Source: an uncultured Muribaculaceae bacterium
GTDB taxonomy: Bacteria > Bacillota_I > Bacilli_A > RF39 > UBA660
Length of the DNA stretch: 35,062 nt
Reading direction: 5' to 3'
Assembly (NCBI GenBank): GCA_964443805.1
Contig: CAYUEQ010000003.1
Span: 1 to 35,062 of the forward strand
The notes below the pieces were generated by a model. The model did no database searches and was not told where the DNA came from. It saw only the letters and a program-made list of their open reading frames with translations. Shown one piece after another: positions 19,581 through 20,761 of the stretch; position 1 is the stretch's first letter; each line of letters opens with the position of its first letter. The position numbers were made by a program, and so were the translations under genes.

Positions 19581-20078
19581 ATGAAAAAAATATTTAGTAT
19601 AATTATAGGAGCGATTTTATTACTACCGATAGTAGTATCAGCATCAGATTTTACAGTTTCTTTATCATGCCCAACTCAAGTTGATGCAGGGAAAGAATTT
19701 ACTTGTACTGTTAGTACATCAGATCCATCAGTTACTGCTTTTCAAGCAACAATTGATTTATCAGAGGCATCAAATTTACAATTAAATGGGACTAAAACAA
19801 CAGAATCATTTATCGGTAAAACAGGTAATATATTTTTAACTTCATCAAATGATTCATCTGGTATTCAAAAAATAAGATTAACTTCAATTTCTGATAGTAA
19901 TTCAAGGAATGCCAATAATGTTGAAACAGAAGTTACGGTAGGAACAGAAACTGCAACCCCAAAAGAAAACCCTGACAACTCAATCGATGGCCCTCTAGTT
20001 TTAATATTAGTAATTTCAGCACTGGCTATTTGTGGTTATTATGTATTTAATAAAAATAGCATATTTACTTCAATATAA
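19581..20078 (+). CDS. Secreted cohesin-like beta-sandwich protein with a C-terminal TM anchor
   Basis: The signal peptide is ...LLPIVVSA/SD. DFTVSLSCPTQVDAGKEFTCTVSTSDPSVTAFQATIDLSEASNLQL fits the N-terminal pattern of a cohesin module. The C-terminal helix is GPLVLILVISALAICGYYVF. Confidence 0.6.
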   Translation: MKKIFSIIIGAILLLPIVVSASDFTVSLSCPTQVDAGKEFTCTVSTSDPSVTAFQATIDLSEASNLQLNGTKTTESFIGKTGNIFLTSSNDSSGIQKIRLTSISDSNSRNANNVETEVTVGTETATPKENPDNSIDGPLVLILVISALAICGYYVFNKNSIFTSI

Positions 20079-20098
20079 TAATAAAAGGACTATATTAA

Positions 20099-20761
20099 AT
20101 GAAAAGAAAAACAGAAGATGTAGAGGTGTTGTTTCCTACTGAAACAACAAAACCAAAAACTAAAATTAAATCTAATAACTTAAAAGCGAAATATATTATT
20201 CCTATTTCGCTTATTTGTGTTATTTCTGCCTTATGTATATATGGTGGTATGGTTGTATTAATGGAAAAAGAAAAAACTAGCATCAATGCTGTTCCGTTAC
20301 AGATAACTGATAAACAAGTTGATATAAAAGATATTACAATTCAAGAAGTTAAACTTGTAATAGGAGAAACAAAAAAAGCGACTATTAATATTATTCCTAG
20401 AAATGCAACAGCTAAAAATCTAGTTTGGTCAATTGATAATTCAGAGGTAGCTATAGTTAATAGTAATGGAGATATAACTGGTATGAGTATTGGTGAGGCT
20501 AATTTAACAGTTGCTACAGAAGATGGTCAAATAGCTGCAAGTACAAAAATTGTAATTGATGGCTCAATTGTAGAGAATGAAAACAACTGTATAATCGGAG
20601 ATGCTAATGGAGATAATATAATAAACAACTTTGATATCTTATATTTAATGAATTATCTCAATAATAATTTAGATAATGAAAATATTAATAAATGTTTAGA
20701 TTTAAACCAAGATAACAAAATAGATTTTCTTGATTTAATAGAATTAAAAAAGTTAATATAA
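20099..20761 (+). CDS. Membrane-anchored Big_2 (Ig-like) plus dockerin-repeat protein
   Basis: The TM helix is YIIPISLICVISALCIYGGMVVL. The Big_2-like stretch reads VKLVIGETKKATINIIPRNATAKNLVWSIDNSEVAIVNSNGDITGMSIGEANLTVAT. Two EF-hand-like dockerin loops are GDANGDNIINNFD and DLNQDNKIDFLD. Confidence 0.75.
   Translation: MKRKTEDVEVLFPTETTKPKTKIKSNNLKAKYIIPISLICVISALCIYGGMVVLMEKEKTSINAVPLQITDKQVDIKDITIQEVKLVIGETKKATINIIPRNATAKNLVWSIDNSEVAIVNSNGDITGMSIGEANLTVATEDGQIAASTKIVIDGSIVENENNCIIGDANGDNIINNFDILYLMNYLNNNLDNENINKCLDLNQDNKIDFLDLIELKKLI

Follow-up and report, generated by a model that had tools for sequence, protein, structure and literature searches.

A 35,062-nt stretch of contig CAYUEQ010000003.1 (hereafter the window), from an assembly registered as an uncultured Muribaculaceae bacterium, carries two adjacent genes for small membrane proteins. 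Gene 1 (19581-20078, 165 amino acids, aa) encodes an extracellular module with a pair of conserved cysteines (Cys pair), and gene 2 (20099-20761, 220 aa) encodes a protein that ends in a dockerin. Both lie on the + strand with a gap of 20 nt, exactly as an earlier sequence-only reading of this DNA had placed them. We propose, with a probability of about 0.5, that gene 1 is a shortened and divergent cohesin-like receptor, that the gene 2 dockerin is its partner, and that the two make up an enzyme-free, membrane-tethered pair. The strongest evidence for such pairing is the genetic coupling of the Cys-pair module to dockerin genes, which recurs among remote relatives of gene 1.

In the proposed mechanism, gene 1 would be a type-I membrane protein with an ectodomain of about 100 aa stapled by the Cys pair. 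Gene 2 would be a type-II membrane protein that presents a calcium-binding dockerin at the tip of a Big_2 spacer. The dockerin would dock on the gene 1 module, either in the same membrane or between cells. The outcome would be an enzyme-free heterodimer of two membrane proteins, used for cell-surface organisation or adhesion. With two membrane-anchored partners and no enzyme on either of them, such a device would tether membrane proteins rather than recruit enzymes.

Architecture and conservation of the gene pair

Gene 2 consists of a cytoplasmic tail (aa 1-30), a transmembrane (TM) signal-anchor (aa 31-55), an Ig-like Big_2 domain (aa 75-148) and a C-terminal dockerin (aa 164-220). The sequence-only reading had named the TM helix, the Big_2 domain and the dockerin duplicate, and the Pfam check that it proposed bore this out. 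Dockerin_1 scored 31.0 bits on residues 167-219 (cutoff 22.9; module at 20588-20758, + strand), and Big_2 scored 40.4 bits on residues 75-148 (cutoff 22.8; 20321-20542, + strand). Both calcium loops of the dockerin, GDANGDNIINNFD and DLNQDNKIDFLD (20600-20635 and 20699-20734), are complete, with 12 residues each and about 33 residues between them. In these loops (D168-A-N-G-D-N-I-I-N-N-F-D179 and D201-L-N-Q-D-N-K-I-D-F-L-D212) the ligand positions 1, 3, 5 and 12 are occupied by D or N, and these positions are invariant across five orthologs of gene 2. Because the Pfam cutoff is passed and the calcium-ligand positions are invariant, we take gene 2 to carry a bona fide dockerin. Its recognition positions 10 and 11 are unequal between the two repeats (NF versus FL).

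Dockerins usually ride on secreted catalytic or scaffoldin subunits, which is their usual context and not a structural requirement. Gene 2 has no catalytic domain; besides the dockerin, it has the N-terminal TM anchor and Big_2 alone (Pfam). A basic tail of 30 aa precedes its hydrophobic helix (approximately residues 31-55, 25 residues). No plausible signal-peptidase site was found near this helix, and the protein was therefore read as a likely type-II membrane protein. Within the tail (residues 1-30; 20099-20188), K4, E6, E9, L11, F12, P13 and T17 are conserved, with an 'E.LFP' motif, and this conservation hints at an intracellular partner. The dockerin itself contains two cysteines, C164 and C199 (20588-20698), one before each calcium loop (NCIIGD and KCLDLN) and both invariant in the window clade. 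They could form a disulfide between the repeats. Two remote dockerins described below (at loci L086 and L087) do not have a Cys pair of this type.

Gene 1 consists of a signal peptide (aa 1-21), the Cys-pair module (aa 22-122), a linker (aa 123-136), a TM helix (aa 137-158) and a short tail. The signal peptide is typical and ends in VVSA, followed by SD. AlphaFold2 predicted an eight-stranded beta-sandwich for residues 22-120, approximately, with a predicted local distance difference test score (pLDDT) of 88-96; a disordered linker and a helix (residues 137-158) follow. This agrees with the signal peptide, the beta-sandwich (about 95 aa) and the TM anchor that had been read from the sequence. 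The TM anchor (PLVLILVISALAICGYYVF.., 19989-20054, + strand) shows an identity of 62-97% among orthologs. The module (19644-19946, + strand) is our putative shortened cohesin-like receptor, an annotation based on the AlphaFold2 model, on homology to longer relatives and on conservation. Two further statements of the sequence-only reading also held. The module has a Cys pair (C30 and C42), and with about 100 aa it is shorter than a classical cohesin of about 140 aa.

Gene 1 has no sorting motif of the LPXTG type; its linker (residues 123-136; 19947-19988) contains NPDNS, followed by the TM helix and a weakly basic tail. The corresponding motif is NPQSS in one ortholog (L002) and NPKTS in another (L001). 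These motifs look like decayed versions of the sorting signals NPKTG and PPQTG, which are found in the remote relatives P0014 and P0013, respectively. The presence of NPKTG and PPQTG in remote relatives and of NPDNS in gene 1 would fit a change, in the gene 1 lineage, from an anchor in the cell wall to one in the membrane. A string common to both TM helices, 'VISAL', is not kept in the orthologs and was set aside.

The gene 1-gene 2 pair was found in three diverged relatives (L001, L002 and L083-85), with 61-95% identity for gene 1 and 46-79% for gene 2. The spacer between the genes (20079-20098, + strand; 20 nt) is 20-21 nt long in all orthologous loci, and its AAAGGA ribosome-binding site is kept in all three relatives. 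Hence, the two genes are not a chance pair of open reading frames (ORFs). Among the extracellular parts, conservation is highest in the dockerin and in the middle of the gene 1 module, while Big_2 and the linkers drift. In gene 2, identity is 49-89% for the dockerin versus 35-74% for Big_2, the least conserved stretch of the protein, and the TM helix also exceeds Big_2 and the linkers. In gene 1, residues 47-90 are the best-conserved part of the module (68-100%, or 68-77% where the whole module reaches 59-63%), and together with the TM helix they change least in the whole protein.

Dockerin genes beside remote relatives of gene 1

An exhaustive HMMER search of 1.8 billion representative proteins with the gene 1 family yielded ten matches at E<=1e-3, in which relatives with a longer module (long forms) reached E-values of 1e-4 to 9e-4. 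Seven of the ten matches (P0007, P0008 and P0010-P0014) share the gene 1 signature, in which F.V.LSCP..v..GE.f.C.v comes after a signal peptide. The two cysteines C30 and C42 are the only invariant residues in the mature domain of the family, remote relatives included. The long-form modules have a length of approximately 120-140 aa, about 20-40 residues more than gene 1, and the additional residues are found in two places.

We compared the mature gene 1 family with six long-form modules by hhalign after removal of the signal peptides, and obtained a probability of 94% and an E-value of 1e-7 over about 45 columns. Furthermore, a hidden Markov model (HMM) built from the long-form modules only, with no gene 1 sequence, recovered gene 1 of the window at E 6e-6 (residues 24-83). 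These results imply that the homology of gene 1 to the long forms is real and extends beyond the signal peptide.

The remote relatives carry sortase-type NPKTG or PPQTG anchors, of a kind also known from anchoring scaffoldins, and combine the module with Cadherin-like repeats. A Pfam match of P0013 to Gram_pos_anchor stayed below the threshold. The family was not extended by a profile-seeded word-index homolog search; a scan of GTDB genomes for the gene 1 family gave no relative, and scans of JGI metagenomes gave no match to either the gene 1 or the gene 2 family. Public sources gave no names for gene 1, gene 2 or their relatives.

Members of the Cys-pair family lie directly beside genes that end in a dockerin in four of the six evaluable contexts (the window clade, L086, L087 and L092). 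In the last three of these, the stop and start codons of the dockerin-ended gene and the module gene overlap. The ORF that overlaps the start codon of P0014 in L086 ends in GDLDSNGIVNQND...DVTDDGEIAIND. Hhalign aligned this end with the gene 2 dockerin at E 5e-4, and it was missing from the Pfam results at E<=0.1. In L092, the start codon of P0012 is overlapped by an ORF ending in GDVNFDGTISISDVMKV. In L087, the start of P0013 is overlapped by the gene of a 535-aa protein with an N-terminal hydrophobic anchor, a Cys-pair module, a Cadherin-like domain and a Dockerin_1 domain (26.9 bits, above the cutoff). A partial gene upstream of this 535-aa gene also ends in a dockerin repeat. P0013 itself is the third gene of L087 (2-2564, from an unknown Firmicute) and has 286 aa, consisting of a signal peptide, a Cys-pair module, a Cadherin-like domain and a PPQTG anchor. 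Judged from its domain order, L087 resembles a miniature scaffoldin gene cluster.

In the context of P0011, only a coupled Cadherin-like gene was found. The contig of P0007 was too short for its context to be read, and the gene appears frameshifted. At this locus (L091, 223-1157) the ORF of the Cys-pair module stops early and the Cadherin-like coding continues in another frame, either by an assembly error or in a pseudogene.

The contexts with an adjacent dockerin gene are not fully independent, because they share common descent. Nevertheless, the linkage has outlasted deep divergence and changes in gene order.

In contrast to this repeated adjacency, an HMM built from the dockerins of the family turned up only a single further dockerin (Dockerin_1, 31.1 bits) when about 0.5 Mb of related genomes was scanned. 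It lies at L027 (8900-12244), in a metagenome-assembled genome (MAG) of related gut Bacilli, on a 613-aa protein with SH3_3, a C-terminal Dockerin_1 and a large unannotated middle region. By eye, this middle region resembles a cell-wall glucosaminidase, which Pfam did not confirm. The next gene, 13 nt downstream, codes for a protein of 496 aa that combines a signal peptide, an unannotated module of about 100 aa, a Cadherin-like domain and a TM anchor.

Gene 1 as a proposed cohesin-like receptor

The sequence-only reading had assigned gene 1 to the cohesins from the pattern at its start. Every direct profile and fold test of gene 1 itself was negative, whereas the homology to the long forms, the cohesin signals of those long forms and the dockerin neighbours all speak for the assignment.

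The long forms gave three cohesin signals. Firstly, the isolated P0013 module matched Pfam Cohesin over positions 3-131 of 139 with 17.5 bits (cutoff 24.1) and an E-value of 0.005. Cohesin was the only Pfam family that this module matched; relatives scanned over their full length gave no match to Pfam Cohesin. Secondly, in a search of the PDB, the long-form profile matched the Ruminococcus flavefaciens cohesins 5m2o, 5m2s and 5aoz at E 0.03-0.045, and these were its only sequence matches to cohesins. Thirdly, when the AlphaFold2 model of P0014 was searched with Foldseek, cohesins (types I, II, III and the Clostridium perfringens type) accounted for about 30 of the best 50 matches, with TMt up to 0.73. 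The top cohesins were the non-cellulosomal C. perfringens structures 2vo8 and 2jh2 (TMt 0.71-0.73). Each of these signals is weak singly, and all three point to the same family. In addition, the N-terminal strand pattern of gene 1 is in register with cohesin strands 2-3 in the hhalign alignments.

A considerable number of results weigh against gene 1 as a cohesin-like receptor. Gene 1 had no match to Pfam Cohesin (PF00963) at E<=1, and its comparison with NCBIfam gave nothing of note. The gene 1 family profile (A1) matched no PDB chain at E<=10, and the mixed family profile (A2) found no cohesin and nothing relevant in the PDB. Hhalign of gene 1 with authentic CipA and R. flavefaciens cohesins (types I and III, derived from the PDB) gave a probability of 0.1-0.2%, which is a weak negative because the alignment of five cohesins was shallow, with two of type III and three near-identical ones of type I. 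In the Foldseek search, the gene 1 model matched the PKD domain 4xed (TMt 0.70, E 3e-4), macroglobulin MG domains, MSP domains and antibodies, and there were no cohesins among the best 50 matches. Cohesins are nine-stranded jelly-roll beta-sandwiches of about 140 aa; the gene 1 model, with eight strands in about 100 aa, departs from this pattern. For gene 1 alone, therefore, neither profile nor structure searches found cohesin similarity, the result that the sequence-only reading had itself named as speaking against its proposal.

The long forms add to these adverse results. Homology between them and gene 1 could be detected in no more than the N-terminal half to two-thirds of the module. The best PDB match of the long-form profile was not a cohesin but the CLIPPER (DUF11) domain 9ifr, at E 0.0048. 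Hhalign of the long forms with real cohesins was not significant (E 0.05, probability up to 1%). The P0014 model has a mean pLDDT of 53, so that the match to the cohesin fold rests on a low-confidence model. Moreover, P0008/P0025, the closest short-form relative outside the clade, had no dockerin neighbour within the 4-13 kb that were read.

If gene 1 is cohesin-like, it would keep counterparts of cohesin strands 1-6, 8 and half of strand 9, and would have lost the strand-7 region along with a portion of strand 9. Both of the missing segments belong, in cohesins, to the sheet across from the 8-3-6-5 face, which binds the dockerin. The family would then descend from cohesins, gene 1 would have retained the dockerin-binding face, and the two proteins would bind each other. 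The supposed loss of strands conflicts with the Ig-like fold matches of the predicted gene 1 structure.

A more far-reaching proposal, which we put forward tentatively, is that the Cys-pair module represents an unrecognised branch of the cohesin superfamily, invisible to the HMM and pared down to about 100 residues. Both partners would have turned into integral membrane proteins, and their enzyme-free coupling, within one membrane or from membrane to membrane, would serve adhesion, surface organisation or signalling via the gene 2 tail instead of enzyme assembly. As far as we know, a module of about 100 residues would be the smallest dockerin receptor.

We consider it rather unlikely that gene 1 and gene 2 are co-transcribed without being partners. 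Gene 1 would then be a generic Ig- or PKD-like domain, and the dockerin would bind a canonical cohesin elsewhere or have a calcium-dependent role that is independent of cohesins. The confident gene 1 model, with its matches to PKD, MG and MSP domains and not to cohesins, fits this explanation, and so do the direct cohesin sequence tests, which were all negative. The best fold matches of gene 1 (4xed and MG domains) are also similar in size, at about 100 aa. Furthermore, the L027 dockerin sits on another protein in the lineage, so other receptors must exist, and the view of the genome is limited to 35 kb. However, co-transcription of non-partners leaves the adjacency of module and dockerin in four lineages with rearranged gene order unexplained, as well as the cohesin likeness of the longer relatives. 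It also has to accommodate the coupling over 20 nt, which was kept while the sequences fell to 46-61% identity. Gene 1 had no sequence match above cutoff to the Pfam Ig and PKD families. We know of no link between PKD domains and dockerins; unlike PKD domains, the Cys-pair family is repeatedly encoded beside dockerins.

In another explanation, the Cys-pair module is a stalk-type sandwich of adhesins or pili (CnaA/CLIPPER-like) in fibrillar surface proteins anchored to the cell wall, the dockerin genes are co-encoded because their products attach to the same fibre by another element such as the Cadherin-like domains, and the version in the window is a reduced remnant. The CnaA-like CLIPPER, a stalk domain of nine strands, frequently bears disulfides (PMC12617251). 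Its likeness to the Cys-pair family is that of a disulfide-bearing, nine-strand surface sandwich found with cadherin-like repeats, and the relatives of gene 1 do join their module to Cadherin-like repeats and sortase-type signals. The structure 9ifr was the best PDB match of the long-form profile, and it ranked third in the fold search with P0014. Conversely, no Pfam match to DUF11/CLIPPER was found in the six long-form modules at E<=10, and cohesins far outnumbered CnaA-type matches in the P0014 fold search. In addition, gene 1 still has a dockerin neighbour without having a Cadherin-like domain, which leaves the module as the only candidate partner in this clade. CLIPPER is, to our knowledge, not known to pair with dockerins. 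We therefore regard a stalk domain as improbable.

The surrounding locus and known cohesin-dockerin systems

The upstream region of gene 1 has a promoter-like site (19506-19535, + strand) with TTGACT, 18 nt, TATTAT and an upstream TG (10 of 12 matches, consensus only). A second site points the other way (19474-19502, - strand), with TTGACA, 17 nt and TAGAAT (11 of 12 matches), and belongs to an operon of a Zn-ribbon/HExxH gene and a trypsin-like gene. Both sites fall within the gap of 131 nt between gene 1 and this operon; the count of promoter-like sites in the region was not above that in shuffled controls. The two divergent -35 boxes stand back to back with 3 nt between them (19496-19512, inside TTGTCAATAGTTGACT). 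Because they are so close, a single regulator bound at TTGTCAATAGTTGACT could control both operons. Gene 2 is followed by a weak terminator-like hairpin and a U-run (20760-20785, + strand; 8-bp stem, dG -5.9 kcal/mol, z -1.86), which a pattern-based terminator scan did not report because its stem is AT-rich. The promoter-like sites, the ribosome-binding site in the spacer and the weak hairpin are consistent with a transcript of two genes.

The sequence-only reading had described gene 1 and gene 2 as divergently co-promoted with a protease operon. The back-to-back promoter-like sites agree with this, whereas the protease part fares less well. The Trypsin_2-like secreted neighbour (16873-18309, - strand; syntenic with the pair) scored 27.3 bits, below the cutoff of 27.6. 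It has NDAGAPL (ADAGSPL in L001) in place of the catalytic GDSGGPL, and IATSFDY in place of the His motif TNAHV. The catalytic Ser and His are missing in all three orthologs compared (window, L001 and L083), and the protein is therefore probably a pseudo-protease. The other divergent neighbour (18310-19449, - strand; 379 aa) combines an N-terminal zinc ribbon with a single TM helix and an extracellular domain whose HELGH zincin motif is intact and is also kept in L001 and L083. Apart from the zinc ribbon, the protein gave no match in Pfam or NCBIfam.

Six-frame scans of the window found no further dockerins. The reported absence of glycoside hydrolases and scaffoldins was upheld for 24 other proteins of the window, none of which matched cohesin, dockerin or glycoside-hydrolase families in Pfam and/or NCBIfam, with the ribosomal-protein block not scanned protein by protein.

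The pair belongs to a cassette (15636-21736) with genes for a DUF4362 protein, a 161-aa protein, the trypsin-like protein, the Zn-ribbon/HExxH protein, gene 1, gene 2 and an acidic 217-aa protein. It is flanked by the rpoA-rplQ end of the ribosomal cluster on one side and by rubrerythrin-pheST genes on the other. Synteny with L001 and L083 extends from the DUF4362 protein through gene 2. The Zn-ribbon/HExxH gene accompanies the pair in all three relatives, although the contigs cover it fully only in L001 and L083, and the trypsin-like gene is present wherever the contig of a relative reaches it (L001, L083-85). PheS of the window has at most 70% identity to uncultured gut 'Bacilli'/'Tenericutes' MAGs (rabbit, goat and human). 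A tblastn search of 32 pheS loci found no cassette orthologs near pheS in related MAGs with 60-70% identity, which implies that the cassette is clade-restricted. It occupies this position in the closest relatives only; of its surroundings, a 79-aa gene just downstream alone has homologs near pheS in distant MAGs. The GC content is about 22-32% across the profiled 14-24 kb of the window. Base composition across the cassette is unremarkable, and an origin of the cassette by horizontal transfer or from a phage was set aside.

It is very improbable that the pair works with the divergent HExxH metalloprotease-like and trypsin-like proteins as substrate, anchor or regulator of a surface proteolytic module, with the dockerin recruiting one of them rather than gene 1: the synteny of the whole cassette in L001 and L083, its absence near pheS in the 60-70%-identical relatives and the back-to-back promoter-like sites suit this idea, but HMM scans found no cohesin-like module in these neighbours, the trypsin-like protein is without catalytic Ser and His, and remote relatives keep the coupling of module and dockerin without these neighbours.

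We return to the proposed cohesin-like pair and compare it with systems that have been characterised. The single-cohesin scaffoldin ScaE of R. flavefaciens is anchored by sortase. Like this type III system (5m2o, 5m2s, 5aoz, 5n5p), gene 1 joins a signal peptide to a single putative receptor module and a surface anchor at its C-terminus. The remote relatives also keep NPKTG or PPQTG, and L087 resembles a scaffoldin cluster. In contrast to the ScaE system, gene 1 has a TM helix and a decayed NPDNS instead of a sortase signal, carbohydrate-active enzymes are absent, and the similarity is below the threshold of significance (E 0.03-0.045). The gene 2 dockerin resembles that of the C. thermocellum CipA-Xyn10B complex (1ohz/1aoh) in that it fits the type I Pfam model and has two calcium loops of 12 residues. 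Unlike a classical type I cohesin, gene 1 is about 40 residues shorter, and the hhalign probability was 0.1-1%.

The glycoside-hydrolase toxins of C. perfringens contain non-cellulosomal pairs of a cohesin (X82) and a dockerin (2vo8, 2jh2 and 2w1n; Adams et al. 2008, as cited in PMC12997984). They share with our pair the combination of one cohesin-type module and one dockerin outside a cellulosome, in a gut or animal host, and their cohesins are the best structural matches of the long form P0014 (TMt 0.71-0.73). The C. perfringens modules, however, are Pfam-type cohesins of about 135 aa that form part of large secreted enzymes. In the window, the pair comes without an enzyme, each partner has its own membrane anchor, and the Cys-stapled module of about 100 aa is missed by the Cohesin HMM. 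The toxin complexes of C. perfringens, the amylosome of R. bromii and the mucinolysome of Limousia are established non-cellulosomal cohesin-dockerin systems (PMC12997984), and hence the concept of such pairing is not new.

What would be new, if our interpretation is right, is a family of dockerin-coupled receptors that escapes the Cohesin HMM, a Cys-stapled form of about 100 residues, and an enzyme-free pair with both partners anchored in the membrane. In that case, surveys based on profile HMMs would under-count cohesin-dockerin systems in non-cellulolytic gut bacteria, and some of the 'orphan' dockerins would be explained. A disulfide-stapled receptor of about 100 residues and its dockerin would also provide a compact orthogonal pair for the engineering of protein assemblies. 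An enzyme-free pair with two membrane anchors would point to a structural or adhesive use in gut Bacilli with reduced genomes. Such a use would differ from the recruitment of enzymes in cellulosomes, amylosomes, mucinolysomes and the toxin complexes of C. perfringens.

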